The notes beneath the pieces are model-generated. The model made no database searches and was not told the DNA's origin. It saw only the letters and a program-made list of their open reading frames with translations. The position numbers and the translations under genes are program-made. Positions 3,791-58,627 of a stretch of DNA of 64,000 nt are shown here, in pieces. The stretch's first letter is position 1. Every line of letters begins with the position of its first letter. Origin of the DNA: a bacterium (lineage in GTDB: Bacteria > Patescibacteriota > Minisyncoccia > Sungbacterales > SURF-37); NCBI GenBank assembly GCA_030648055.1, contig JAUSHI010000009.1, forward strand, positions 112,769 to 176,768, given 5' to 3'.

Positions 3791-3906
3791 TCCCGCACGA
3801 AATCGCGGACGCGTGTATACTATATATGAATTTTGTTAGAAAAAGTTTTATTAATAATAATTTGGAGCGCGGGATATTCTGCGTCCGCGTCCTATTTCGT
3901 ACGGGA
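3791..3906 (+). repeat. Palindromic MITE-like element, family C copy 1
   Basis: Terminal inverted repeats TCCCGCACGAAAT..ATTTCGTACGGGA, flanked by TGAA on both sides. The last A of the element plus flanking TG forms the ATG at 3906. Confidence 0.7.
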
Positions 3907-4982
3907 TGAAAGATTTTTCGTTTCCTATTTTTAAAACCAAAATTCCGGGGGTCTCCGGACGTTTTATGCTTGAAGACCCGGTAGAGCGCCGGAAATACTT
4001 TGACGCCAAAGCCGGGCCAGAGATTGAAAAGTTGCGCGGGTATTTAGAAAAAAACACCTTTTTAGGATTTATGCTTGGCCCGAAAAACTCCGGCAAGGGC
4101 ACGTATGTAAAACTTTTTATGGAGGCCGTGGGAGGAGACCGGGTGGCCCATCTCTCGGTCGGAGATATTGTACGAAATGTTCACAAAGAGTTAGTGGATG
4201 AAAAGAAAAAGAAAGAGTTAGTTGGGTTTTTGCAAAAACGATATCGGGGCTTTATTACCATTGATAAAGCCTTAAACATTATCTTGGGGCGCGACACCAA
4301 GACTCTGCTTCCCACCGAAATTATTTTAGCGCTGGCAGAGCGGGAAATAGACCGCATCGGTAAAAAAGCGATTTTTATTGACGGGTTTCCAAGGAACTTG
4401 GATCAAGTTTCTTACTCGCTTTATTTCAGGGCGCTTATCGGCTATAGGGACGACCCCGATTTTTTTGTGTTTATAGATGTTCCCGAGGCGGTAATTGATG
4501 AGCGCATGAAAACTCGCGTGGTCTGCCCGCAGTGTCAAAGCCCCAGGAATATCAAACTTCTTCGTACCAAAGAGGTTGGTTATGATTCCGCGACAAAACA
4601 ATTTTATCTCATTTGTGATAATCCGAATTGCCCCGGGTATGGGAAGGACCGCATGATTTCCAAAGAAGGGGATGAGCTCGGCATAGAGGCGGTTCGCGAC
4701 CGTATTGAAGTTGACAGAAAAGTGGCGCGTACACTTATTGACCTTAAGGGCGTGCCTCAAATATTTTTGCGAAATTCTATTCCCATTGCCGAGGCCAAAG
4801 AATATGTTGATGATTATGAGATTACACCGGCGTATCTATATGAGCTGGAGGAGGGCAAGGTTAATGTTATTGAGGAGCCGTGGACAGTAACGGATGATGA
4901 AGGCAATCTTTCGTATAGTTTGCTTCCGGTGCCGGTTGCGCTTGCTTTAATAAAAGAAACCGTTCGTGCGCTTAATCTTTAG
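3906..4982 (+). CDS. adk: Adenylate kinase-like NMP kinase, unusually long (358 aa)
   Basis: P-loop GPKNSGKGT, GDIVR, IDGFPRNLDQ, and a Cys4 LID (CPQC..CDNPNC). Has ~55-aa N-terminal and ~90-aa C-terminal extensions. Not in the usual secY-adk-map position. Confidence 0.6.
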   Translation: MKDFSFPIFKTKIPGVSGRFMLEDPVERRKYFDAKAGPEIEKLRGYLEKNTFLGFMLGPKNSGKGTYVKLFMEAVGGDRVAHLSVGDIVRNVHKELVDEKKKKELVGFLQKRYRGFITIDKALNIILGRDTKTLLPTEIILALAEREIDRIGKKAIFIDGFPRNLDQVSYSLYFRALIGYRDDPDFFVFIDVPEAVIDERMKTRVVCPQCQSPRNIKLLRTKEVGYDSATKQFYLICDNPNCPGYGKDRMISKEGDELGIEAVRDRIEVDRKVARTLIDLKGVPQIFLRNSIPIAEAKEYVDDYEITPAYLYELEEGKVNVIEEPWTVTDDEGNLSYSLLPVPVALALIKETVRALNL

Positions 4983-7036: not shown

Positions 7037-7222
7037 TTATTTTGCTTTGTTGAGAGTTCGCATGCACTGTGTGCAGGCCTTTGTCCTTTTGCCGGATGCC
7101 AATTTGGCCCATTGAAGATTTGGGTATTTTCGCGAAGTTTTGGTAAGATTGTAGTGTCCACGAAGAAGTTTGCGTGTTCCGCCAAGCTTTGAACCTTTTC
7201 CGCATATTGCGCATTTTCTCAT
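7037..7222 (-). CDS. rpmB: 50S ribosomal protein L28
   Basis: 61 aa. MRKCAICGKGSKLGGTRKLLRGHYNLTKTSRKYPNLQ matches the L28 pattern. Confidence 0.85.
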   Translation of the reverse strand: MRKCAICGKGSKLGGTRKLLRGHYNLTKTSRKYPNLQWAKLASGKRTKACTQCMRTLNKAK

Positions 7223-7248
7223 AGTATGGATAAACTTATCATATTCTT

Positions 7249-8010: not shown

Positions 8011-8047
8011 TTTATCCAAATAAAACCCATCGGCTGTATTTGGATAT
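8011..8047 (+). repeat. Family H hairpin repeat, copy H1
   Basis: tttATCCAAATAaaacccatcggctgTATTTGGATat. A 37-nt copy with 2 mismatches occurs at 41474..41510. Confidence 0.6.
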
Positions 8048-19360: not shown

Positions 19361-19693
19361 ATGAGAGAAGGTGCACCAGAAATAGAAAAAGGGGATTCCG
19401 TGGTAGAGCAACCAGAGCGTCCGACAAGAGAAAAGTTAGAGCAAGAAGCAGAATCTGTTTGGAAAAGTCACGAGCCCATGGCGGAAACCTTCCGAGAGAT
19501 AGCGGGCCAAACCAGCGTTGATCGTAAGATGAACGAATATGTTGACACGGCTATACGAGATTTACGTAATACAGCAAAAGAGCCAAACCATTATAAAAAT
19601 CCAGATAGCGTAGCCAAGAGCTATCCTGGTTGGGAAGCGGAAGATTTTGAAGACCTTGCCAAGATATTAGAAGCAAAGAAAATAGATATGTAA
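19361..19693 (+). CDS. Hypothetical acidic protein inserted between rpsJ and rplC
   Basis: 110 aa ORF starting 17 nt after the rpsJ stop. No motif recognised. Confidence 0.45.
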   Translation: MREGAPEIEKGDSVVEQPERPTREKLEQEAESVWKSHEPMAETFREIAGQTSVDRKMNEYVDTAIRDLRNTAKEPNHYKNPDSVAKSYPGWEAEDFEDLAKILEAKKIDM

Positions 19694-19877: not shown

Positions 19878-19901
19878 GGCCGGGTTTGTTCCCGGTTTTT
19901 T
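19878..19901 (+). terminator. Weak terminator-like hairpin inside the S10 operon spacer
   Basis: CCGGG-tttgtt-CCCGG followed by TTTTTT. Confidence 0.4.
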
Positions 19902-20105
19902 CAATGTTTATCTGCGAATGCAAGCCGGAAGGCGCAGCATGAGCAGGTATAAACATTGAACCCGCCGAAGCTCCGCAAGGAGCGAAGGTGGGTGGTAATT
20001 ATTGGTGTCCGCCTTCGCTTCCGCCATCGCTAAAGCTATGGCGGACAAGAAAGCTACGGCGGATGCTCATATTCGTAGCTACTCGCTACGCTCGCAGACG
20101 AAATT

Positions 20106-20711: not shown

Positions 20712-20825
20712 ATCAATTACGCCATAGGCGGAATTGGTCGCCCGGACACTCGTGTTATTGAGTGTCTGATGGATTAAAAAGGCCCTCGGAGCGAGGGCGA
20801 TAATGGATGATGAGTGAGAGCTATG

Positions 20826-21134
20826 CTATGAAGAATTTTTTCTAGGAAAGAGCCGCATAAGCGTGAAGAAAGTAATAAGGTAGGAAAGCAACCATGTGGC
20901 TAAAGCCGTGAGTCCAGTAACAATCGGAGCTGAGAATGGGGAAGTGAACTTGATTCCAAGTAAGCCGAGTAGTAGTTTACAGAAAATATCAGCGCAATAT
21001 AGTGCAAGGAGAAGAACCAGAAAGCGCTTAAGTTTCGTAGACCAGAGGGTAGCGTTTCCATGGCGGTAGTAAAAAAAGTATAAGGTAGTTCCGTAAACAA
21101 CGCCGTAGATCAACTCCTGTGTGGTGAGCGCCAT
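20826..21134 (-). CDS. Small 3-TM membrane protein, antisense, between rplC and rplD
   Basis: ATG 21134 (M27 of the track ORF) follows AAGGGGGAA. 102 aa, hydrophobic. Confidence 0.55.
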   Translation of the reverse strand: MALTTQELIYGVVYGTTLYFFYYRHGNATLWSTKLKRFLVLLLALYCADIFCKLLLGLLGIKFTSPFSAPIVTGLTALATWLLSYLITFFTLMRLFPRKNSS

Positions 21135-21188
21135 TGTTCCCCCTTGGATTGTCAACGAACAGCAGTTTAATATGTAGCAGAAATAAAA

Positions 21189-21848: not shown

Positions 21849-22236
21849 TCTTTTCAAAAAAGAAAGCGATAAGCCCGCCGTAAAACCAAATCCAAAACCT
21901 CGCGTAAAAGAGGAGGCGAAAGAAGTTGCGGTAAAAGTAGCTCCGAAAACGGTCTTCGGCAAATATCCGCTTGGTATTTTGATTGCTCCGCGAATAACCG
22001 AAAAAGCGACCATGTTACAGAGCAACAATCAATATGTTTTTGAAGTTTCGGATAATGCCAACGCCAGTTTGATTAGGAGAGCCGTTGAGGGCAAATACGG
22101 AGTTCGTGTTCGCGGGGTAAATGTTTTGAATCAGCCCGGAAAAAAAGTCAAAACTGGCCGCCGTGAAGGATGGAGCAAGGGCTTTAAAAAGGCGATTGTT
22201 TCTCTGGAAAAAGGCCAGACCATAGATTTTACGTAA
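21841..22236 (+). CDS. rplW: 50S ribosomal protein L23 (Lys/Pro-rich N-terminal extension)
   Basis: ITEKATML..YVFEV..NA.K..I..AVE pattern. Overlaps the rplD end. Confidence 0.9.
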   Translation: MFNLFKKESDKPAVKPNPKPRVKEEAKEVAVKVAPKTVFGKYPLGILIAPRITEKATMLQSNNQYVFEVSDNANASLIRRAVEGKYGVRVRGVNVLNQPGKKVKTGRREGWSKGFKKAIVSLEKGQTIDFT

Positions 22237-22436
22237 AGGGCTTTGTCTGCGAGGTGGGCGTACATACGCGAAGCCGAGCAGGAACAAAACCTTTACCCAG
22301 CCCTTTATGCGGTAAAACCAATCTAAAATTAAAATGGAAAAAGCGGCAACATTCAAATTAAAATCAAATCCAGACAGCTTAAAGGGCTGGGTGCTGAATT
22401 TTATATTTACTCATTACATTCGTAAGTAAAATTCGC
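22237..22436 (+). repeat. Family A structured element, copy A1 (L23|L2 junction)
   Basis: Conserved blocks TAAAGGGCTTTGTC, ACAAAACCTTTACCCAGCCCTTTATGC, GCTTAAAGGGCTGGGTGCTGAATTTTATA, TAAAATTCGC-ATG. Contains a 31-codon mini-ORF at 22334..22429. Confidence 0.85.
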
Positions 22437-23255
22437 ATGAAGAAATATAACCCAACAACGCCGTCGCGGAGAAGTATGGAAAAAATAGATTTTCGCTTTT
22501 CTTCAGATGGGCCTTATAAAAAACTTACCTGCGGCCGTAAAAGGGATGTTGGCAGGAATAATCAGGGGCGCATTACGACCAGGCATAAGGGTGGCGGAGT
22601 CAAGCGGCTTTGGCGCGAGATTGATTTTTTGTATAACAAGAAAAATATTATGGCAACGGTTGAAACCGTAGAGTACGACCCGAATCGCACAAGTTTTATT
22701 GCGCGAGTTCTTTATAAAGACGGTGAGCGCCGATATGTTCTTGCTCCTGCCGGCTTTAAAGAAGGAAGCACTTTTGTTGTTTCTGAAAAAGCTCCGTTGG
22801 AGGCAGGCAACCGTTTGCCGCTTAAAAATATTCCCGTTGGAACACCTGTTTTTAATATTGAATTAAATTTAGGTAATGGAGCCGTGCTCGTTCGTTCAGC
22901 CGGCACTTCCGCGCAGATTCTTGCCGAGGAGGGTGGATATACCCAGCTTAAAATGCCTTCGGGCGAGATAAGGAAAGTGCATTCATCCAATTGGGCGACC
23001 ATTGGAAACGCATCCAACCCTGAAAGGAGTCTTATGGTTTTCGGAAACGCCGGAAGGATGAGGCGCTTGGGCGTCCGTCCGACTGTCCGAGGTTCTGTCA
23101 TGAACCCGAGAGATCATCCGTACGGCGGAGGCGAAGGTAAGCAGGTTAGGGGCACAAAGCGCCCGAAGACCATGTGGGGTAAAATCGGCAGAGGTGTTAA
23201 GACGCGAAGAAATAAGAAAACCAACGTATTTATTCTTAAGAGGAGAAGTAAATAA
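22437..23255 (+). CDS. rplB: 50S ribosomal protein L2
   Basis: 272 aa. GRNNQGRITTRHKGGG..MNPRDHPYGGGEG motifs. Confidence 0.97.
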   Translation: MKKYNPTTPSRRSMEKIDFRFSSDGPYKKLTCGRKRDVGRNNQGRITTRHKGGGVKRLWREIDFLYNKKNIMATVETVEYDPNRTSFIARVLYKDGERRYVLAPAGFKEGSTFVVSEKAPLEAGNRLPLKNIPVGTPVFNIELNLGNGAVLVRSAGTSAQILAEEGGYTQLKMPSGEIRKVHSSNWATIGNASNPERSLMVFGNAGRMRRLGVRPTVRGSVMNPRDHPYGGGEGKQVRGTKRPKTMWGKIGRGVKTRRNKKTNVFILKRRSK

Positions 23256-23262
23256 AATTAAC

Positions 23263-23598
23263 ATGTCCAGATCACTTAAAAAAGGTCCATATATCCATCC
23301 GTCAATTATTAGAAAGCTTGCCAAACTTAGGCCTGGAGCCACCGCGGTTATTAAGACATGGGCGCGGAATTCGGTCATTACTCCGGAGATGATCGGCATC
23401 ACTTTTCAGGTGCATAACGGCAGGATATTTATTGACGTGAAAGCGCGCGAGGAAATGGTTGGGCATCGCCTCGGCGAATTCTCGCTGACGCGCAAGTTTG
23501 TAAGGCACGGAGGACGAATGCAAAAAGAACTTGAGATAAAAGCCGCGGAAGGCGAGAAGGTCAAAGCCGCCGCTCCCGAAGTTAAGCCGGCTAAATAA
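23263..23598 (+). CDS. rpsS: 30S ribosomal protein S19 (C-terminal extension)
   Basis: MSRSLKKGPYI.. start at 23263 (M24 of the track ORF); GHRLGEF motif. Confidence 0.95.
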   Translation: MSRSLKKGPYIHPSIIRKLAKLRPGATAVIKTWARNSVITPEMIGITFQVHNGRIFIDVKAREEMVGHRLGEFSLTRKFVRHGGRMQKELEIKAAEGEKVKAAAPEVKPAK

Positions 23599-25757: not shown

Positions 25758-26123
25758 ATGATTCAAACGCGTTCAATGTTAAAAGTTGCCGATAATTCTG
25801 GAGCCAAACTTGTTCAGGTGATAAAAGTTTTGGGCGGCTCACGGAGGAGATACGCCGGGCTCGGTGATATTGTTGTTGTTTCAGTTAAAATTTCCGAACC
25901 GCGCAAACTCGTCAAGAAAAAGGACGTAGTTAGGGCGGTAATTGTTCGCCAACGCGCGCCTTTCAGGCGCAAAGATGGCAGCTATATTCGTTTTGACGAC
26001 AATGCTGTGGTTATTGTTGATGGGCAAGAGCCGAAAGGCGGGCGCATTTTTGGCCCCGTAGCAAGAGAACTTCGTGAACGGGGATTTGCTAAAATTATTT
26101 CACTGGCTCCGGAGGTTGTTTAA
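25758..26123 (+). CDS. rplN: 50S ribosomal protein L14
   Basis: [17 protein letters not shown] start, 121 aa. Confidence 0.97.
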
Positions 26124-26325
26124 AGGGCTTTGTCCGCTGTTTGGAGCCGCAAGCGAACAAACAGCGGTTACAAAACCTTTACCCAGCCCTCTATGCTGTT
26201 TGATTACGAGACGCAATAATTTATGAAGAAAAAACTTGTAAAAAGTAATAAACGAAATTCGGGCGGCTTAGAGGGCTGGGTGCTGAATTTTATAGTTATT
26301 CGCTTTGCTCATAAATAAAATTCGC
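26124..26325 (+). repeat. Family A structured element, copy A2 (L14|L24 junction)
   Basis: Same block order as A1. 10-bp hairpin CCGCTGTTTG/CAAACAGCGG. ACCCAGCCCTCTA pairs with TAGAGGGCTGGGT. Mini-ORF at 26223..26318. Confidence 0.85.
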
Positions 26326-26631
26326 ATGAAGATTAAAAAAGGTGATACAGTCAGAATATTATCGGGTAAAGATCGTGGTAAAAACGGCAAGGTTATTCGT
26401 GTTTTGCCGGACGAGACGCGCATTTTGGTTGAGGGAATTAATTTGAAAAAAAAGCATGTGCGTTCCAAACGGCAGGATAAAAAAGGTGAAGTTGTCTTAA
26501 TTCCCGCTTTTTTAAACGTTTCGCGATCTATGTTAGTATGCCCGAATTGCCAAAAGCCAACGCGGGTTGCCAGTAAAGTAATAGGCGATAAAAAATATCG
26601 CATGTGCAAACATTGCGATAAGGAATTTTAA
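26326..26631 (+). CDS. rplX: 50S ribosomal protein L24 with a C-terminal Cys4 zinc-ribbon
   Basis: MKIKKGDTVRILSGKDRGKNGKV KOW motif. C-terminal CPNC..CKHC. ATG 26326 is M8 of the track ORF. Confidence 0.93.
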   Translation: MKIKKGDTVRILSGKDRGKNGKVIRVLPDETRILVEGINLKKKHVRSKRQDKKGEVVLIPAFLNVSRSMLVCPNCQKPTRVASKVIGDKKYRMCKHCDKEF

Positions 26632-28346: not shown

Positions 28347-28703
28347 ATGAAGATTAAAAGTTCAAGAGAAAAAAGGATAATACGCCATAAGCGTACCAGG
28401 GCGATAATAAAAGGTACGGCCGAGAAGCCGCGGCTTTCGGTTTTCCGCTCTAATCGTCATATGTGGCTTCAGTTGATTGATGACATTTCCGGCAAAACTT
28501 TGGTTTCGGCAAATGATGCCGAAATTAAAACCAAAAAGAAAAGTGTCGGCAAAGACACGGCCTCTTTAGTCGGAGAATTGCTTGCTAAAAGAGCTGGTGA
28601 GAAAAAAATTGAACGCGTTGTTTTTGACCGGAGCGGGTACTTGTATCACGGTTTGGTACGCGAAGTGGCCGAGGGAGCAAGAAAAGGCGGTTTAAAATTT
28701 TAA
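28347..28703 (+). CDS. rplR: 50S ribosomal protein L18
   Basis: ATG 28347. RHKRTRAIIKGTAEKPRLSVFRSNRHMWLQLIDD; FDRSGYLYHG. Confidence 0.95.
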   Translation: MKIKSSREKRIIRHKRTRAIIKGTAEKPRLSVFRSNRHMWLQLIDDISGKTLVSANDAEIKTKKKSVGKDTASLVGELLAKRAGEKKIERVVFDRSGYLYHGLVREVAEGARKGGLKF

Positions 28704-28907
28704 AGGGCTTTGTCCAAAATTTAGAGTAGTCGTCAAATAGACTTTGGAAACAAAACCTTTACCCCGCCCTCTATGCTACAGTTTATAAGTAATAGATAGT
28801 TTATGTATACGGAACTTGCAAAGCACAATAAGGCAAAGCGGAATCGCTTAGAGGGCGGGGTGCTCAATTTTATAGTTATTTATTTCATTCATAAATAAAA
28901 TTCGCAT
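28704..28907 (+). repeat. Family A structured element, copy A3 (L18|S5 junction)
   Basis: Same blocks. ACCCCGCCCTCTA pairs with TAGAGGGCGGGGT, a compensatory change relative to A2. Mini-ORF at 28803..28898. Confidence 0.85.
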
Positions 28908-29396
28908 ATGCCAAGATTTGGTGGTTCAAAATTTAAGAGAGGGGGAGAGCGCGAGAAGTCGGAATATGACCAGAAAGTGCTGGATATCCGCAGGGTAGCG
29001 CGCGTGGTTGCCGGAGGGCGCCGTTTTAGCTTTAGGGCGACGGTTGTTATAGGGAATCGCAGAGGAAAAGTCGGCGTGGGTGTCGCCAAGGGCGTTGATG
29101 TAGCACAGGCCGTTGAGAAAGCCACTCATAAGGCAAGAAAATACATGGTTGTTGTTCCGTTAACTAAATGGGGTTCTATTCCCCACAGAGTGTTGGCTAA
29201 GTTTTCAAGCGCGAGGGTTCTTTTAAAGCCCGCGCCGGAGGGTTCCGGTATTATTGCCGGAGGCTCTGTTCGCGCCGTGGCTGATCTTGCTGGCATAAGG
29301 AATCTTTCTTCAAAAATTCTGTCCCGTTCGCCGAATAAATTAAATAATGCCCGCGCCGCGCTTGCCGCCTTGGCGAGTCTTAAGGCGCGAGAATAA
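28908..29396 (+). CDS. rpsE: 30S ribosomal protein S5
   Basis: 162 aa. RVARVVAGGRRFSFRATVVIGN..GSGIIAGG pattern. Confidence 0.96.
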   Translation: MPRFGGSKFKRGGEREKSEYDQKVLDIRRVARVVAGGRRFSFRATVVIGNRRGKVGVGVAKGVDVAQAVEKATHKARKYMVVVPLTKWGSIPHRVLAKFSSARVLLKPAPEGSGIIAGGSVRAVADLAGIRNLSSKILSRSPNKLNNARAALAALASLKARE

Positions 29397-35989: not shown

Positions 35990-36496
35990 TTGTTCTTTGT
36001 TTCTATAAGCCGAATCCTGTCCTCTGCCTTACGGCAAAGGGGTGATTATCTGTCTAGGCCCGGAATTGCTTCGCGGGCTCAAGCGGGTATTCCCTATAAA
36101 AAATACTTGGGATCCCCTTGCACCAGGTAGGAGTTTTTCTTATCCCGCCAGTCGCCTGCCGGAACTGTGGGCTCTTACCCCACTCTTTTCACCTTTGACC
36201 TCCTTCGCATTGAAAACCTTTAGAGTTTTCGTAACGACGATCGGTAGTATTGTCTCTGTGACACTGTCCCGTTCTCCCTCCCCAATTTTGCACCCGAGTT
36301 ATTCAGTCGAATCAATCGCGATAAGCAAAATCATTCTTTACTGTCTATTTATCTCTGATGCAAAACTGGAGAGGGATATGGTGGCTGTTAGCCACTACCA
36401 CTTTTTTCCAGCTTAACGCTGGAAGGTGTTCGGACTTTCCTCACCAAGCACATAAAAAGTTATGTGCTTGGCGCAATCACCCGAAACAAAGAACAA
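35990..36496 (-). ncRNA. rnpB: RNase P RNA (bacterial type), unusually long at ~507 nt
   Basis: Minus strand carries GAGGAAAGTCCGAAC (CR-I/P4) and GACAGGATTCGGCTTATAG (CR-V/P4). P1 is TTGTTCTTTGTTTC/GAAACAAAGAACAA. Its own TTGCTT-17-TATACT promoter lies just upstream. Confidence 0.85.
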
Positions 36497-40170: not shown

Positions 40171-41424
40171 ATGGGAAAAGTAGACGGGATAAAAAATATT
40201 GTTGTTATTGGCGCCGGCTTCGGCGGTCTTACCGCAACTTTGAAATTATCCGAAGCGATCAAAAGGAAAGGGCTTGGCAAAAACTGCCGCGTTCTTTTGT
40301 TTAACAAGACTTCTTACCAAGTTTACACCCCCGCGCTTTATGAAATTGCCGCTGTTCCGAGAGGTGAGGCAAGCGCGGTGTGCCTGAAAACCTCCATTTG
40401 TATTGACTTGGAGGATGTCGCTTCCCGCGAGGGCTTTCAGTTTATAGGCGGAGAGGTTGTGAGCGTTGACCCTGCAAAAAAATTAATTACTTTAGCAAGC
40501 GGCGAGACCCAGGCCTTTGACTATCTGGTAGTAGCACTTGGCACGGAGACGAACTTCTTCAATATACTGGGTTCCAAGGAACATTCACTACCGTTAAAAA
40601 CTTTTGAGGATGCGATTCGGTTAAGAAACAAGACCGAGAAGGCAGTTCTCTCGGGAGTGAGTCCGATACATGTTGTGATAGGTGGAGGGGGAGCTACCGG
40701 CGTGGAGCTTGCCGCTGAATTTGAAAACTTCGTGTGTTATTTGAAAGAGAAGTTACTGCCCGCCAAAAGGGTCTGCGACGTTGATATCACTTTGGTTGAG
40801 GGCGCTTTAGACATTCTTCCGGGTTTTGAGCCGTGGCTTGTAAAGAAGGCACGGAAGAAATTGGAAGTGCTTGGCGTTAAAATTCTTGCGGGAAAGATCG
40901 TTGCGGGAGTTGACGAAAGAATAGTCACTTTTAAAGACGGCGCGGCTCTTCCGTATCACATTTTTGTCTGGGCAGGAGGCGTTATGCCGGCGGGGGCAAT
41001 TAAAAATTTTGGCCTACCTCTTTCACAAAAAGGCAGAGTTATAGTGAACGAATATTTAGAGGCCGTACACCATTATATTTTTGCGGTTGGAGATAATGCT
41101 GAATTTGCCGGAAAGGACGGCAAGCCGCTTCCAGGAAATGTTCCGGTGGCCGAAGCTGAAGCAAGAGTTGCGGCAAAAAACATCATCGCCGATATTCAAG
41201 GCCGGCCACATCAGGAATTTTTTCCCATGAAAAAATATCCGTACATTCTTGCTGTTGGCCGGAAATACGCGATAGCTGATCTTGTATTTTTCCATTTTTC
41301 TGGTTTTTGGGGCTGGTGCGCGAAACAGCTTATAGAACTCCGCTATTTGGTTTTTGTTCTCGGGTTCAGGAAGGCGCTTAGTATGTGGTGGAGGAGCGTG
41401 AAGTATCAGATGTCCAATGATTAA
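40171..41424 (+). CDS. ndh: Type II NADH dehydrogenase-like FAD/NAD(P) oxidoreductase
   Basis: IVVIGAGFGGL and VVIGGGGATGVELA dinucleotide-binding motifs. C-terminal membrane-anchor-like tail. Confidence 0.85.
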   Translation: MGKVDGIKNIVVIGAGFGGLTATLKLSEAIKRKGLGKNCRVLLFNKTSYQVYTPALYEIAAVPRGEASAVCLKTSICIDLEDVASREGFQFIGGEVVSVDPAKKLITLASGETQAFDYLVVALGTETNFFNILGSKEHSLPLKTFEDAIRLRNKTEKAVLSGVSPIHVVIGGGGATGVELAAEFENFVCYLKEKLLPAKRVCDVDITLVEGALDILPGFEPWLVKKARKKLEVLGVKILAGKIVAGVDERIVTFKDGAALPYHIFVWAGGVMPAGAIKNFGLPLSQKGRVIVNEYLEAVHHYIFAVGDNAEFAGKDGKPLPGNVPVAEAEARVAAKNIIADIQGRPHQEFFPMKKYPYILAVGRKYAIADLVFFHFSGFWGWCAKQLIELRYLVFVLGFRKALSMWWRSVKYQMSND

Positions 41425-41473: not shown

Positions 41474-41510
41474 TTTATCCAAATAAAACCTATCGGCCGT
41501 ATTTGGATAT
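41474..41510 (+). repeat. Family H hairpin repeat, copy H2
   Basis: tttATCCAAATAaaacctatcggccgTATTTGGATat matches H1 (8011..8047) at 35 of 37 positions. Confidence 0.6.
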
Positions 41511-43702: not shown

Positions 43703-43813
43703 ACAAAAAAGAAACAACTTGGTGCGCTGTGCTGGCGGATTTTTGTGCTCGGATTCAGGAAGGCGCTTAGTATGTGGTGGAGGAGCGTGAAGTATTCGGT
43801 GTCGAACGATTGA
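43703..43813 (+). pseudogene. Orphan duplicate of the ndh 3' end
   Basis: Translates to ..QLGALCWRIFVLGFRKALSMWWRSVKYSVSND*, against the ndh C-terminus ..QLIELRYLVFVLGFRKALSMWWRSVKYQMSND*. The 42-nt identical core is 43754..43795 = 41365..41406. Confidence 0.8.
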
Positions 43814-46021: not shown

Positions 46022-47053
46022 TCATACTTTAATTTTTCGCAAAAATTTCGCGGCTTTTTCGGGGGCGATTGTGGATATATCAATGCCGGTTGATATTTCA
46101 AAGCCGGCCCAAATGGCGGTTTTTGGGATGATCTCAAGGTGCCAGTGATAGTGGTTAAATTCGGCCGTGGATGTTACCGGAGAAGTATGGATGAAAAAAT
46201 TATGGTCGGGGTTGCCAAGTCCTTTATAGAGTTTGGCTAAAGCTGTTTTTAGTGCGTCAGCGATCGCCGGCAAGTCGTCGTCCTCGCTTATTTCAAACCG
46301 GGGATTGTGGCGTTTTGGAAAAATGTGCACCTCAAATGCGGCTCTTGAAACGAAGGGGCAGAAAACAATGAAATCATTATTTTCATAAACTATGCGTCTT
46401 TTGTCCTTCATTTCAAAATCTATCATAACGCAGTGCACGCAGGCGTTTTTATGGGTGCGGGCGAAAAGTGCGGAGCCTTTTAAACTGCGTGAAATATCCG
46501 GAGGAATGACCGGGGTCGCGATAAGCTGTGAGTGGGGATGAAAAACACTGGCCCCCGCGCTCGGTCCGTGATTGTGGAATATGGATATGTATTCAACGCA
46601 GTCTTCGTCTTTTAGGGATTTGTAGCGCTCGCGGTAACTTTTAATTATGCTTTCAACTTCACGCTGAGTCATTTCCGCTATCGGGCGGGTATGATTGCGG
46701 GAAATTATTACCTCATGAAAGCCGACGCCATCCATCCAAGAGTGCGGACCAAGTTTTCGCTCCACTTGGCATATCCCTTTGTCAAAAGCCGGATATTTAT
46801 TGGGTACGACCTGCACAAACCAGTTTTTTTTTAGATAAGGCAGATCTTTTTTTGTTAATCGGTAAGATTCGTTTTTTCGGTCAATTATTAAAAGAGCGTT
46901 TTTCATCAGCTCTTCAAAACGGCAATTTTCTTTTGGCGGGATTGTCTTTTTTTCTTTGCGGGCAAACGCTTGCGGCCGTTTTGCCCGTCCGGTAGCGATT
47001 AGAACCCAGGCGCCGGTGACCGGGTCCTGCCTTAGTTCGGAGCTCTTCTTCAT
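46022..47053 (-). CDS. galT: Galactose-1-phosphate uridylyltransferase-like HIT-family enzyme
   Basis: 343 aa. Active-site FHPHSQL; RCPFC replaced by NCRFE context. Two HIT-like halves. Confidence 0.75.
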   Translation of the reverse strand: MKKSSELRQDPVTGAWVLIATGRAKRPQAFARKEKKTIPPKENCRFEELMKNALLIIDRKNESYRLTKKDLPYLKKNWFVQVVPNKYPAFDKGICQVERKLGPHSWMDGVGFHEVIISRNHTRPIAEMTQREVESIIKSYRERYKSLKDEDCVEYISIFHNHGPSAGASVFHPHSQLIATPVIPPDISRSLKGSALFARTHKNACVHCVMIDFEMKDKRRIVYENNDFIVFCPFVSRAAFEVHIFPKRHNPRFEISEDDDLPAIADALKTALAKLYKGLGNPDHNFFIHTSPVTSTAEFNHYHWHLEIIPKTAIWAGFEISTGIDISTIAPEKAAKFLRKIKV

Positions 47054-47060
47054 GCGAATT

Positions 47061-47792
47061 TTATTTTTTAAATTTATATTTCCCGCTGATAAAATTCCAT
47101 CTTATGTGAAAGACATCAAGAAAAACATTGAGATAGGCCTTGAGTGTTACCTTGCTGTCCGCTTCAAAGTGCCAACGCACCGGAATTATCGCCATTTTAA
47201 ATCCGAGCCTTTTTGCGAGCGCCAAGATTTCTATATCAAAAGCGAAGCCGGGTATGAGTTGCATCGAAAAAATAGCTTCGGCGGCTTTTTTGGTGAAGGC
47301 CTTAAAACCGTTTTGCGTGTCCCAAATGCCCCATACTCCGAAAATTTGAATGATAAGATTTCCTAATCTTCCCAGAATTTCCCTGTACCACGGCTCTTTG
47401 ACATCCCGGGCGGCGCCTTTGGCGTCTTTGGGGTCGCGCGAGCTGATTACGATGTCATGGCCCTTTTCAAAAAAAGGAATCATTTGGTCAAAATAATTCG
47501 GCACGGTTGAATTATCGGCGTCGGAAAAAAGACGGATGTCTCCTTGAGCGGCAAGCATTCCGACTTTCACCGCGTTACCTTTTCCTCTGTTTTCTATCTC
47601 TATAAGGCGCACATTTCCGAATTCCGCGGTGATTTTATTGATTATTTCCCTGGTTTTGTCTTTGGACGCGCTGTCGGCGATTAGAATTTCGTAGGAAAAA
47701 TTTTTTGTTTTAAGATAGGCCTCAACCTCGCGGAGCGTTTTTTCAATTCGTTTTTCTTCGTTATAGGTAGGTATTATCCAGGAAAGATGCAT
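47061..47792 (-). CDS. Family 2 glycosyltransferase (dolichyl/polyprenyl-phosphate glycosyltransferase-like)
   Basis: IIPTYNEEKRI, ADSASKD, DADNS motifs. Confidence 0.85.
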   Translation of the reverse strand: MHLSWIIPTYNEEKRIEKTLREVEAYLKTKNFSYEILIADSASKDKTREIINKITAEFGNVRLIEIENRGKGNAVKVGMLAAQGDIRLFSDADNSTVPNYFDQMIPFFEKGHDIVISSRDPKDAKGAARDVKEPWYREILGRLGNLIIQIFGVWGIWDTQNGFKAFTKKAAEAIFSMQLIPGFAFDIEILALAKRLGFKMAIIPVRWHFEADSKVTLKAYLNVFLDVFHIRWNFISGKYKFKK

Positions 47793-48063
47793 GTCAGTTT
47801 TATTTATGAGCGTAGTTAATAACTACCCGCCCGCCTTGAGTTCGCCATTTTATGGAATTATATGTTATTTTTACCATTGTATTGAACTAAGGATAACAAG
47901 TGATTTCCAGCAAGCACTCAAGGCGAAGTCGGGCGCGGTAAAATTGAGCACCTCGCCCCTTAAGCAACTCAAATTATTTTCATCTTTTTTATAAAGTTTT
48001 TCCATAATAACAATTATTATAATTCCAGCAACATAGAGGGTGGGGTAAAGACATTGTCAAAAT
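47793..48063 (-). repeat. Family A-like element, divergent and 5'-truncated copy A4 (ruvX|GT2 junction, minus strand)
   Basis: Minus strand reads TAA-ATTTTGACAATGTCTTTACCCCACCCTCTATG..GCTTAAGGGGCGAGGTGCTCAATTTTACC..GCTCATAAATAAAACTGAC-ATG. In-frame ORF at 47871..48005. Confidence 0.6.
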
Positions 48064-48465
48064 TTATTTAGAAGGTAAATTTTGACCACGCTCTTTGTCC
48101 AAATATGATTGCAAAATTATCGCCGCCGATGCCTTATCAAGATTTTCGGCGGAAATCCCGTTTCGCACGGCCATTTTTGTAGTCAGCACTTCATTTTCAA
48201 ATTCTATCGGCAAGTTTATTTCTTTTTTGAGCAACGAGGCGAATTTTTTTACTTCAAGCAGTTGTTTTGATTCTCCGCCGCCGAAGGGGATAGGGAGGCC
48301 GATGATTATTTTTCCTATTTTTTCTTTTTCAATAGTTTCTTTAAGGGCTGTTATAAGTTTTTCTGAGCCGGGTATGGTTTTGTGCGGAAAGGCGATACTC
48401 CCTCCTTCGTCTGAAATAGAGAGGCCGGTTCGTTTTTTTCCGTAATCAATACCGAGATACCTCAT
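48064..48465 (-). CDS. ruvX: Holliday-junction-resolvase-like / pre-16S rRNA nuclease YqgF
   Basis: MRYLGIDYGKKRTGLSISD start, 133 aa. Confidence 0.9.
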   Translation of the reverse strand: MRYLGIDYGKKRTGLSISDEGGSIAFPHKTIPGSEKLITALKETIEKEKIGKIIIGLPIPFGGGESKQLLEVKKFASLLKKEINLPIEFENEVLTTKMAVRNGISAENLDKASAAIILQSYLDKERGQNLPSK

Positions 48466-52110: not shown

Positions 52111-52252
52111 TCCCGTACGAAATCCCTGCCTGCCGGCAGGCAGGCAGGGCGGACGCGCATATATCATATATATGAATTTTGTTCTGGGAAAATTTAGAAG
52201 TAATAATTTGGGATGCGAGATTTTCTGCGTCTGCGTCCTGTTTCGTACGGGA
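52111..52252 (+). repeat. Palindromic MITE-like element, family C copy 2
   Basis: TCCCGTACGAAAT..GTTTCGTACGGGA ends with flanks TGAG|TGAA. Carries a nested (CCTG)2/(CAGG)3 near-palindrome at 52124..52149. Its last A plus TG forms ATG 52252. Confidence 0.7.
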
Positions 52253-53343
52253 TGAAAACAATTTTAATAGCCGGTGCTGTAATGTTCGGCATTATTGTCT
52301 TAGCGATTGTTGTCCTGCCGTTTATTTTCGGCGTAACTTTTAGTGCGCCTTCCACCGCAGGGAAAGCGGATACTCAGGGCGTATTTCTTTCCGAAGACGG
52401 AGGGGCGACATGGCAGGCAAGAAATAACATAAAAGATTCTAAGCTGAAGCTTTCGGGCCTAAACATAACCGATTTTGCGATAGATTCTAAAAATAGCGGC
52501 TGGCTTTTTATGGCAACAAGTAACTCCGGCATTTGGAAAAGTGATGATGGGGGCCAGAATTGGGAGAAGGTTGTTGATAAGGCCGGCACCCTTGACCCCA
52601 AAGCTCAAGTTTTGCGGCTTGTTATTTCTAAGAAAAATTCCAATTTGTGGTTTACCGCCGTATATCAAAAAAACCGCGGCGCGGTATTAAAGAGCGAAGA
52701 CGGCGGCGAGACATTTAAAGAAGTGTATTTTGTTCCGGTGGAGCGTTTTGGAGTGTTTAACCTTGCGTATGACGATGCGGCCGGTATCGTGACCATCGTT
52801 AACGGGCAGGGTGGGCTTTTGGAGTCGCGCGACTTAGGGAAGTCTTGGAGGGTGGTTAAATGGTTTACGGACGGGCTGACCGGAATTGTCGCCGATCCCG
52901 TAGCATCTTCCATTTATTATATTTTGACCGCTAAAGGTAAAATTTTTAAGACTGCGGATCGCGGGGCGAGTTTCACGGACCTAAGTTCTAATTTTAGTTC
53001 TTTTGACAAAAGCTGGAAAAATCAAAATCTAACCATTGACCCTTTGAGCGGCACTCTTTACCTTGGCTCGGATTACGGTATTATACGCTCAAAAAACGGG
53101 GGTTTTTCATGGGAGAGCGTTCCGGTAATAATTCCACCCGAGGCTCTGCCGGTTTTAAGTATTGCTGTTAATTCCAACGATTCACGCGCATTTTTCGTAA
53201 CGGCGCAGTCGCAGATTTATAGGACGGCGGATGGCGGCGTAAATTGGTCAATTGTTCCCTCACCCATATCGGGGCGGCGGATTACCAAGTTCGTTATTGA
53301 TAAAAACGACGCCAACCGTATATATCTTATTGGCAATAAGTAA
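52252..53343 (+). CDS. Membrane-anchored BNR/Asp-box beta-propeller protein (Ycf48/sialidase-like fold)
   Basis: Start MKTILIAG (M14 of the track ORF) with a TM helix. Seven SxDxGxxW-like repeats (SEDGGATW, SDDGGQNW, SEDGGETF, SRDLGKSW, TADRGASF, SKNGGFSW, TADGGVNW). Confidence 0.75.
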   Translation: MKTILIAGAVMFGIIVLAIVVLPFIFGVTFSAPSTAGKADTQGVFLSEDGGATWQARNNIKDSKLKLSGLNITDFAIDSKNSGWLFMATSNSGIWKSDDGGQNWEKVVDKAGTLDPKAQVLRLVISKKNSNLWFTAVYQKNRGAVLKSEDGGETFKEVYFVPVERFGVFNLAYDDAAGIVTIVNGQGGLLESRDLGKSWRVVKWFTDGLTGIVADPVASSIYYILTAKGKIFKTADRGASFTDLSSNFSSFDKSWKNQNLTIDPLSGTLYLGSDYGIIRSKNGGFSWESVPVIIPPEALPVLSIAVNSNDSRAFFVTAQSQIYRTADGGVNWSIVPSPISGRRITKFVIDKNDANRIYLIGNK

Positions 53344-57282: not shown

Positions 57283-57304
57283 ACCCGCCAGTGGCGGGTT
57301 TTTG
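57283..57304 (+). terminator. Rho-independent terminator
   Basis: CCCGC-cagtg-GCGGG followed by TTTTT. Confidence 0.65.
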
Positions 57305-57355
57305 AATTGAGTGGTGTTTTGTGGGAAAAACAATTGTGTTACATTTAAAAAGGAT

Positions 57356-58627
57356 ATGCACTACAACTATTTGATAATCGGTGGGGGGATTGCCGGCGTG
57401 ACTGCCGCGGAGACAATCCGCGGCTTGAATAAGGACGCGACCATCGCGATTATGTCGCAGGAGCCGCATCTTTTGTATTCCAGGGTGCTTTTGCCTAATT
57501 ACGTGAAGAAAAAAATCCGGAAAGATCAGGTTTTTTTACGGACTATAGACGATTTTGAAAAGAAAGATATTGTTCTCCTGCTCGAAAAAGAAGCTGTTTT
57601 TTTGGATGTCGCCAAAAGAGAAGTTAAGGCGAAAAGTGGTGAAATTTGTTCTTTTGATAAATTACTCATTGCTTCTGGTGGTGCGCCCATGCCGGTGAAC
57701 ATTCCGGGTGAAAAACTCGCGGGCGTGTTCCGCCTGCAAACTTTGGACGACGCGGATTCTTTATTGGAAGCGCTACCTGAAGCTAAAAAAGCGATTGTAA
57801 TAGGCGGCGGCTTTATCGGCCTTGAATTTCTGGAAATTGCCCATGTTTATAAAATTCCGACGGTATTGTTATCAAGAGGCCCGAAATTTTTTGAAAACGT
57901 TTTGGATTCCACGGGCGGAGAACTGATGAGGAAAAATTTTGAGCGTTTTGGCATAAATGCTATTTTTGAGGACGAAGTCGTGGAATTTGGAGGAAAGGAG
58001 CGGGTTAGCGGCGTTCGCACTAAAAAAGGTATTGTGGTTGATGGTGATATTGTGGGCGTCGGGATCGGCCTTAAAATGAATGATAATTTCTCTCTCGGGA
58101 TAGGCCTCGGTTCGCCTCCGCAGGCGGGTGTCGCGCCCATTCACACGGATATGCCCGAGCGTGGCATCCGCGTGAATGAATTTTTGGAGACGGCAAATCC
58201 GGGAATTTTCGCGGCCGGAGATGTTGCTGAATATTTTAATGTTTCTTCCGGGCGTTTCGGCAGGCATGGTAATTGGACGAATGCTTTTCTTCAAGGGAGA
58301 ACGGCGGGACAAAATATGGCTGGTAAAGAACGGCTGGTGTTTAAGAACGTTCCTTTTTATTCCACAACCAATCTCGGCCTGCACATCACTTTTTTGGGGG
58401 ATACGGAAGAGGGCGAAGGAGCGGAGACTGTTTCCAGGAACGCCTTGCCCGGTAATATGTATGAAAGATTTTTTTTGCGTGAAGGGAAGTTGGCGGGAGC
58501 GGTTATTATTAATATGTTCCATGATAAACCGGCCTTAGCCGAGCTAATTGAAAAAGGAGTTTTGATTAATAACGCGCGCGAAAATCTTACTGATATGTCT
58601 TTTGAAATCAAGACGCTTTTGGGGTGA
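57356..58627 (+). CDS. FAD/NAD(P)-dependent pyridine-nucleotide-disulfide oxidoreductase family protein
   Basis: ATG 57356 follows AAAAGGA. YLIIGGGIAGV and VIGGGFIGLE Rossmann motifs; AAGDVAE. Confidence 0.8.
   Translation: MHYNYLIIGGGIAGVTAAETIRGLNKDATIAIMSQEPHLLYSRVLLPNYVKKKIRKDQVFLRTIDDFEKKDIVLLLEKEAVFLDVAKREVKAKSGEICSFDKLLIASGGAPMPVNIPGEKLAGVFRLQTLDDADSLLEALPEAKKAIVIGGGFIGLEFLEIAHVYKIPTVLLSRGPKFFENVLDSTGGELMRKNFERFGINAIFEDEVVEFGGKERVSGVRTKKGIVVDGDIVGVGIGLKMNDNFSLGIGLGSPPQAGVAPIHTDMPERGIRVNEFLETANPGIFAAGDVAEYFNVSSGRFGRHGNWTNAFLQGRTAGQNMAGKERLVFKNVPFYSTTNLGLHITFLGDTEEGEGAETVSRNALPGNMYERFFLREGKLAGAVIINMFHDKPALAELIEKGVLINNARENLTDMSFEIKTLLG

Follow-up and report, generated by a model that had tools for sequence, protein, structure and literature searches.

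The element that fills the gaps ahead of several ribosomal protein genes in the stretch of DNA analysed here (the window, 64,000 nt) is probably conserved as an RNA fold and not as a small gene, with the mini-ORF found in it riding along as a facultative passenger of a cis-acting mRNA element. A sequence-only reading of the window had described a conserved 31-codon ORF in every copy of this element, ending just before a ribosomal protein start codon, and had proposed a uORF-type coupling device, with a small peptide or a by-product of RNA-level conservation as alternatives. We found the fold in copies from many Patescibacteria, most of them without the frame.

A stop-to-start element of three hairpins

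Five copies of the element were present in the window (scores are covariance model bit scores):

22234 to 22436, plus strand: copy A1, from the rplW stop to the rplB ATG at 22437; 152 bits
26121 to 26325, plus strand: copy A2, from the rplN stop (TAA, 26121 to 26123) to the rplX ATG (26326 to 26328); 183 bits with covariance model R1
28701 to 28907, plus strand: copy A3, from the rplR stop to the rpsE ATG at 28908; 163 bits
47793 to 48097, minus strand: divergent copy A4, adjoining the ATG (47792 to 47790) of a glycosyltransferase-like gene; 53.9 bits for 47861 to 48097
19901 to 20105, plus strand: fifth, divergent copy, flush with the rplC ATG (20106); 54.9 bits, E = 3.5e-12

The element measures about 205 nt and consists of three hairpins (P1, P2 and P3) that follow one another without linker and fill the whole intergenic gap. 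Bases 1–3 are the stop codon (TAA) of the upstream gene, and pairing ends on the A of the downstream gene's ATG. In A2 the three hairpins are:

26121 to 26181, plus strand: P1 hairpin; TAAAGG pairs with CCTTTA at the foot, a GC/A internal loop follows, and the stem above it covaries
26182 to 26280, plus strand: P2 long-range helix, CCCAGCCCTCTATGC...GCTTAGAGGGCTGGG around a variable A-rich loop
26281 to 26326, plus strand: P3 hairpin, TGCTGAATTTTAT...ATAAAATTCGCA, whose 3' strand is the AU-rich leader and which ends on the A of the rplX ATG

Three other copies depart from this plan in details. In A3 the usual ATG position reads ATA and the rpsE start lies 2 nt further on, A4 carries a nested hairpin of about 110 nt within the P3 tip, and the fifth copy, although its P1 and P2 sequences differ, follows the three-hairpin layout and has the P3-loop motif CTCGCTACGCTCG at 20082 to 20094. 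Elsewhere in the window the P3-loop motif YTCRCTNYRYTCR occurred at chance frequency, and the extra matches were not element-like. Ahead of the fifth copy (about 19878 to 19899) we noted a GC hairpin followed by a T-run that looks terminator-like by eye and was not listed by the consensus terminator scan.

The predicted fold of A2 has a minimum free energy of -76.2 kcal/mol (z = -6.4), and the architecture is strongly supported by covariation in an alignment of 30 sequences. In this alignment 95.7% of the cells were paired, compared with 77.4% after shuffling and at most 52% with slid partners; compensatory cells numbered 242 against 75 in the shuffles (0 of 500 shuffles reached the observed value), and 26 of the 47 pairs showed double changes. 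Compensatory changes were found at 13 of 20 pairs in P1 and at 12 of 15 pairs in P2, and the fourth pair of P3, for which the consensus is TGCT(G/C)AATTTTAT...ATAAAATT(C/G)GCA, changed from G:C to C:G in 6 of the 30 sequences. The P2 helix opens with CCC...GGG and its remaining sequence is free. Across 69 whole P2 helices (mean span 19.5 positions, range 11 to 33) we counted 1158 Watson-Crick, 79 G-U and 30 A-C pairs, and the excess of G-U over A-C identifies the sense strand as the folding strand. A DNA-level palindrome, suspected from the rarity of G-U in the outer 15 pairs, was rejected on the same whole-helix counts. A fourth helix joining the coding flanks in a cloverleaf-like manner was likewise discarded, the duplex energy being -3.87 kcal/mol for own flanks and -3.96 kcal/mol for mismatched ones.

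When the alignment was viewed by eye, no co-variation was apparent between the P3 loop and the P1 tip that would indicate a kissing interaction. A consensus scan gave no -35/-10 promoter site and no intrinsic terminator at a fixed place common to A1–A3, and the variable length of P3 makes a fixed promoter or terminator spacing impossible. The window-type P2 has a U-U mismatch that A1, A2 and A3 all retain in an unchanged context (UAUGC opposite GCUUA; 26193 to 26195 with 26267 to 26269 in A2).

No match to the element was found in Rfam 15, either at the gathering threshold or at E values up to 10, and the literature search returned no description of it. The only Rfam matches in the window were the RNase P RNA and two tRNAs, none of which overlaps an element; the RNase P RNA match (class A, 35990 to 36492, minus strand) is 503 nt long for a model of 367 positions, which implies sizeable insertions. 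The element is thus apparently an uncatalogued structured RNA family, unusual in its stop-to-start borders and its strict sense orientation.

Several other features of the window were recorded. The S10-type operon contains an extra ORF of 110 amino acids between rpsJ and rplC (19361 to 19693) and a gap of 478 nt between rplC and rplD (20712 to 21188) with an antisense ORF of 102 amino acids (20826 to 21134). Three two-copy repeats are unrelated to the element: 3810 to 3911 with 52156 to 52257 (79% identical), 41322 to 41422 with 43711 to 43811 (80%), and a hairpin-like 37-nt sequence at 8011 to 8047 and 41474 to 41510 (95%).

Copies in other Patescibacteria and their borders

A search with the pattern CTTTACCC-N80-110-GGTGCTNAATTTTA returned 27 genome loci and 63 metagenome loci. 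Nineteen of the 27 genome loci carried true copies (20 copies in all), and the metagenome-assembled genomes (MAGs) concerned were all Patescibacteria (Wolfe-, Giovannoni-, Jorgensen-, Taga- and Sungbacteria, Paceibacterota and 'Saccharibacteria'); among viral contigs the pattern gave no match. A covariance model built from the 30-sequence alignment and run on the fetched loci gave 77 distinct forward copies, often two to four per locus and again all from Patescibacteria. These include a class of mini copies:

L012, 1527 to 1653: mini copy before L32
L036, 162 to 292: mini copy before S10
L010, 672 to 810: mini copy before the aspartyl-tRNA synthetase (AspRS) gene

With a P2 loop of 3–4 nt and a total length of 127–139 nt, the mini copies are still flush with the ATG of L32, S10 and AspRS, and the P2 loop is therefore dispensable. 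Two copies from one Giovannonibacteria MAG, one before S11 (L018, 2291 to 2478) and one before a PilC-like gene (L021, 950 to 1137), differ at 4 of 188 nt, a near-identity that suggests a recent copying event or gene conversion across unrelated loci. The only public contig with an identical L24 (L091; Logan contig SRR13727527_824659, 2650 nt) begins 71 nt upstream of rplX and stops some 200 nt past rplR, consistent with assembly breaks inside A2 and A3.

Borders were counted over 82 copies, with a cut-off of at least 50 codons for upstream ORFs. In 44 copies the upstream ORF ended on element bases 1–3; a further 16 had the ORF end within the element, and only 4 had it end 1–45 nt upstream. The 38 copies without a flush upstream ORF include some that follow terminator-like hairpins. 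The terminal ATG of the element was the start of the downstream ORF in 60 copies; 9 others had a start slightly offset from it, and none used GTG or TTG. Every scored copy was sense to its gene, no antisense copy being seen among the 82. Conservation ends abruptly at both borders, the TAA and the ATG. The ends (TAAAGG... and ...GGCATG) are not inverted repeats, and neither terminal inverted repeats nor target duplications were seen at them, the flanks showing no repeat or pairing.

Among 67 downstream proteins whose N-termini were read by eye, about half were ribosomal proteins (S3, S4, S5, S10, S11, S13, S14, S16, S18, S20, L2, L3, L6, L14, L19, L20, L24, L25 and L32); the others were mostly EF-G, aminoacyl-tRNA synthetases, FtsE/X/A, MreB, SecE, SSB, DnaJ and PilC, and Pfam confirmed the families of part of these proteins. 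Occupancy of junctions varies: the window has the element before L3, L2, L24 and S5, and locus L052 has it before L14 and S14. Locus L010 carries a copy before an oxidoreductase gene (7043 to 7235), the window orthologue of which (at 57356; region compared, 57300 to 57356) has a plain AAAGGA leader behind the same terminator hairpin.

Five further copies shed light on the role of P3. They precede an NrdD-like gene, GalT, the tryptophanyl-tRNA synthetase (TrpRS) gene, S5 and a membrane protein gene. AAA stands at the P3 foot, and the apical loop of P3 (CGCTATGCTC / CACTATGTTC) contains an in-frame ATG exactly 27 nt further upstream:

L074, 6993 to 7212: AAA-foot copy
L062, 5270 to 5487: AAA-foot copy
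L039, 573 to 796: AAA-foot copy
L033, 2116 to 2334: AAA-foot copy
L090, 1686 to 2054: AAA-foot copy

The downstream proteins start with M-F/L-K/Q-N-x-N-K-I-x-K (for example MFKNFNKIGK), a decapeptide encoded by the P3 3' strand. Fold-directed initiation at a non-AUG codon (AAA) in these GGCAAA copies was considered and rejected, since each has the in-frame ATG 27 nt upstream. We infer that P3 is the initiation region. AU-rich leaders without a Shine-Dalgarno (SD) sequence are the norm for genes in the window, and genes that lack the element often still carry a leader of the AAATAAAATTnnC-ATG type, so that the P3 3' strand resembles the SD-less leader in general use in the window organism. Examples of leaders of element-less genes are AAATAAAATTAAC-ATG before rpsS (23245 to 23265) and AAATAAAATTCGC-ATG before the GalT-like gene (47053 to 47085, minus strand).

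The frame inside the element

Four window copies hold the frame:

22334 to 22429, plus strand: mini-ORF of A1, ATG, 30 codons and TAA
26223 to 26318, plus strand: mini-ORF of A2, 31 codons plus TAA, coordinates and translation verified
28803 to 28898, plus strand: mini-ORF of A3, ATG, 30 codons and TAA
48005 to 47871, minus strand: 44-codon frame of A4, phase kept through the conserved block

Most of what had been reported for these copies was reproduced: the exact 31-codon ORFs of A1–A3 are present at the stated coordinates with the quoted peptides, and A4 holds the same frame through the conserved block over 44 codons. The statement that such an ORF lies in every copy is correct for A1–A4 and fails for the fifth copy (19901 to 20105), in which the ORF list shows no ATG mini-ORF of this kind. 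In A2 the ATG lies in the P2 loop, codons 16–31 coincide with the P2 3' strand and P3, and the stop is a UAA within the P3 3' strand (AUAAAAUUG). As the sequence-only reading had noted, the frame takes in the whole terminal hairpin as well as the long-range helix's 3' strand, and it stops beside an SD-less start, 7 nt ahead of it in A1 (rplB) and A2 (rplX) and 9 nt ahead in A3 (rpsE), and no GGAGG-type SD sequence lies between stop and gene ATG in A1–A3. The first codons are indeed unrelated and stop-free, codons 2–15 differing almost wholly among A1–A3 (10–13 non-synonymous and 0–2 synonymous differences). In the folding model the gene leader is about 90–96% paired in A1 and A2 (unpaired probability 0.04–0.10; 0.10 in A2), and the 15 nt ahead of the mini-ORF ATG are unpaired with a probability of 0.5–0.75 in A1–A3, so that the loop AUG is predicted to be accessible in the window genome. 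Loop shuffles put the chance of such a frame at 0.06–0.16 per window copy; its presence in four out of four would be unexpected only if the copies were independent, which they are not.

Outside the window the frame is mostly missing, an outcome that the sequence-only reading had itself named as a refutation. The ATG, expected to be kept in homologous copies if the ORF mattered, had no in-frame counterpart before the conserved block in 43 of the 77 non-window copies, and in only 18 of the 77 did an ATG lie within the element 15 or more codons upstream. Nor were length and frame preserved: total lengths ran from 31 to 48 codons, the junction-to-ATG distance from 20 to 159 nt, and length variants of P3 did not hold the phase, non-modal lengths being in phase 15 times and out of phase 24 times. 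The non-window copies contain stops in the frame or, in the mini copies, leave no room for it; it is missing from all mini copies and also from copies that stand before the same genes (S5, S13, S4, S20 and L20). The frame is therefore not a defining feature of the element, no peptide is conserved, and a helix-opening uORF cannot be its general mechanism.

The second half of the peptide, described as conserved, is so in the window genome and its nearest relatives only and not across the family. Base pairing of the P2 3' strand and P3 holds this half and the stop codon constant, so the by-product alternative explains both fully. The expected bias towards synonymous sites was absent. Between A1, A2, A3 and their nearest relative (locus L010), differences at the three codon positions were flat (9/8/7, 9/6/11, 7/6/7 and 5/4/5), with 0–3 synonymous and 8–13 non-synonymous codon differences. 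Together with the lack of any Pfam match for the mini-ORF peptides, the flat codon positions count against the small-peptide alternative. A stronger P3 in ORF-bearing copies, which had been considered as a candidate distinction, was not borne out by the stability comparison, P2 and P3 being equally stable with or without the frame. Of the 23 copies with the ORF, 8 have their first ATG within the paired part of P2.

Long ATG frames are nevertheless more frequent than shuffled loops predict (23 of 81 copies, 5.9 expected), and the excess held against three kinds of shuffle. To weight for relatedness, loops were clustered at 68% identity, counts were cluster-weighted with the window copies excluded, and dinucleotide or block shuffles were used; a threshold of 55% identity left just two clusters and was not adopted. 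In the mini-ORF phase, ATG frames of 15 or more codons then amounted to 11.2 clusters against 3.0–3.1 (P < 1e-4, an optimistic value as relatedness is under-corrected). Phase +1 frames, which end inside the P3 5' strand, reached 7 clusters against 2.5, and phase +2 frames 1 against 1.9, whereas openness of the frame alone was not enriched (25 against 22 clusters). The counted frames begin within the loop and run on past the P2/P3 junction, and they are three to four times commoner than in shuffles. In 17 of 21 copies with the ORF the stop is the UAA that lies 7 nt ahead of the gene, and 17 of 21 are in phase, compared with 18 of 38 ORF-less copies. In two sub-lineages (W, which is window-like, and X) the frame stays open through loops that can no longer be aligned. 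Against reading the excess as selection stand the lack of enrichment for openness alone, the first ATGs buried in P2, and the relatedness that the clusters miss, the frame-bearing copies falling by eye into some seven or eight sub-lineages. Even with optimistic P values, this excess is not explained by the by-product view. Of the proposed coupling device, then, the structural premises hold and a subset of copies shows an excess of frames, but it is not a general property, 43 of the 77 copies lacking the ATG.

Interpretation, rival readings and significance

On the reading we prefer, that of a conserved fold with a passenger frame, the frame is open in the window sub-lineage and in about a quarter of the other copies and missing from the remainder. 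Its unrelated first 15 codons correspond to the hypervariable, dispensable P2 loop, and the invariant part of the peptide (L-E/K-G-W/G-V-L-N-F-I...) spells out the P2 3' strand followed by the 5' strand, loop and 3' strand of P3. Judging from its anatomy, the element would act on the downstream cistron: P3 would hold the AU-rich, SD-less leader and offer the AUG either at the foot of the hairpin or, as in some variants, within the apical loop, and the helices without linker would set the upstream stop beside the downstream start on the open side of a three-helix junction. In operons with little space between genes, such adjacency would make termination-reinitiation or defined processing easier. 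In the window genome ribosomes may translate the mini-ORF, melt P2 and P3 and be released 7 nt before the gene AUG, and this translation would then be an optional booster and not the core mechanism.

A possible but less probable reading is that a subset of copies maintains, in a lineage-restricted manner, a cis-acting uORF whose peptide is irrelevant: ribosomes would load at the loop AUG, unwind the P2 3' strand and P3, stop at the UAA and re-initiate or clear the leader. The three- to fourfold frame excess argues for it, as do the common UAA with its 7-nt gap that ends 17 of 21 frames and the predicted contrast between an accessible loop AUG and a paired gene leader in A1 and A2; flat codon-position differences are expected of a uORF whose peptide does not matter, and since SD-less AU-rich leaders are usual in the window, the loop AUG could be recognised. 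Against this, some 70–75% of the copies lack the frame, including all mini copies and copies before the same genes, with no compensating weakening of P3 where the ORF is absent. The first AUG sits inside the P2 helix in 8 of 23 ORF-bearing copies, phase +1 frames that end in the P3 5' strand are enriched too, and openness alone is not. The notion of a functional small protein with a basic N-terminal half and a hydrophobic/aromatic tail is very improbable: although four window copies keep the frame open and three have it at identical length, nothing is conserved outside the RNA-constrained block, non-synonymous outnumber synonymous differences (10–13 to 0–2 among A1–A3) with flat codon positions and no Pfam match, most homologous elements have no frame, and the hydrophobic stretch of about 8 residues is too short for a membrane helix.

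The element might also be chiefly a selfish, proliferating repeat, tolerated at stop/start junctions because its fold hides it from translation, with the loop frames as decaying relics. Junction occupancy that differs between genomes (the window, L052 and L010), the two copies of one MAG that differ at 4 of 188 nt at unrelated loci, nested insertions in loops and tips, and a public assembly that breaks at copies would all suit such a repeat. We nonetheless regard this as improbable, given that all scored copies are sense and most flush with a start codon, that terminal inverted repeats and target duplications were not seen, that neither a gene-carrying copy nor a viral match was found, and that the element stands before the same housekeeping genes in lineages far apart, which fits long-term retention. 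More far-reaching, and in our estimate rather unlikely, is a Patescibacteria-wide translation device in which the element would serve as a stop-to-start bridge without linker to an SD-less AUG (shunt-like reinitiation) or would yield near-leaderless processed messages, with the loop uORFs evolved as a second route that opens P2 and P3 from inside.

The element shares features with several known systems and differs from each. As in the translational attenuation of ermC and cat, the downstream initiation region is paired in a hairpin into which a short upstream frame extends, and a ribosome in that frame would melt the hairpin. The erm and cat leaders have a conserved start, length and often peptide, have an SD sequence and depend on drug-stalled ribosomes, whereas the element has no family-wide start or length and no SD sequence, and most copies are frameless. 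With termination-reinitiation systems (bacterial overlapping stop/start codons, the cauliflower mosaic virus (CaMV) 35S RNA shunt and the calicivirus TURBS) it appears to have in common a stop at the 5' foot, a start at the 3' foot and a free interior, but 38 of the 82 copies have no flush upstream ORF; the ribosome shunt of the CaMV 35S RNA and the calicivirus TURBS are eukaryotic systems. Like REP/BIME, ERIC, Neisseria Correia and Rickettsia palindromic elements it is multi-copy, about 100–250 nt in size, folded, located in operons and patchy in occupancy. Those repeats are near-palindromes that occur in either orientation and keep no set position relative to start codons, while the element is asymmetric (three different hairpins), always sense and bounded by stop and start. 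Autoregulatory leaders of ribosomal protein operons (S8/spc, L4/S10 and S4/alpha) are likewise structured RNAs before ribosomal protein cistrons that overlap the initiation region; each of them mimics the rRNA site of one protein and stands before one cistron, unlike the one motif found here before at least 19 ribosomal protein genes plus EF-G, aminoacyl-tRNA synthetases, FtsE/X, MreB and SecE, and none of the Rfam families of such leaders matched the element. Finally, the intercistronic RNase III hairpins of T7 and lambda are also long, near-perfect helices between cistrons, and by analogy the downstream message might be released or made more stable by processing of the element; these hairpins have nothing that corresponds to its conserved helix feet or its P3 loop motif.

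The mini-ORF is an example of RNA-level conservation that imitates a conserved peptide, and it tempers small-ORF calls in structured spacers: both 'GVLNFI' in the window copies and 'MFKNFNKIGK' in the variants with relocated starts are dictated by the RNA. The element would also affect gene calling, start-site annotation and assembly, as contigs break at its copies. The Patescibacteria, whose genomes are very small, devote some 200 nt to this one uncatalogued fold at several places in an operon, and if the element governs translation start or message processing, it would be a lineage-wide expression signal that replaces the Shine-Dalgarno leader.
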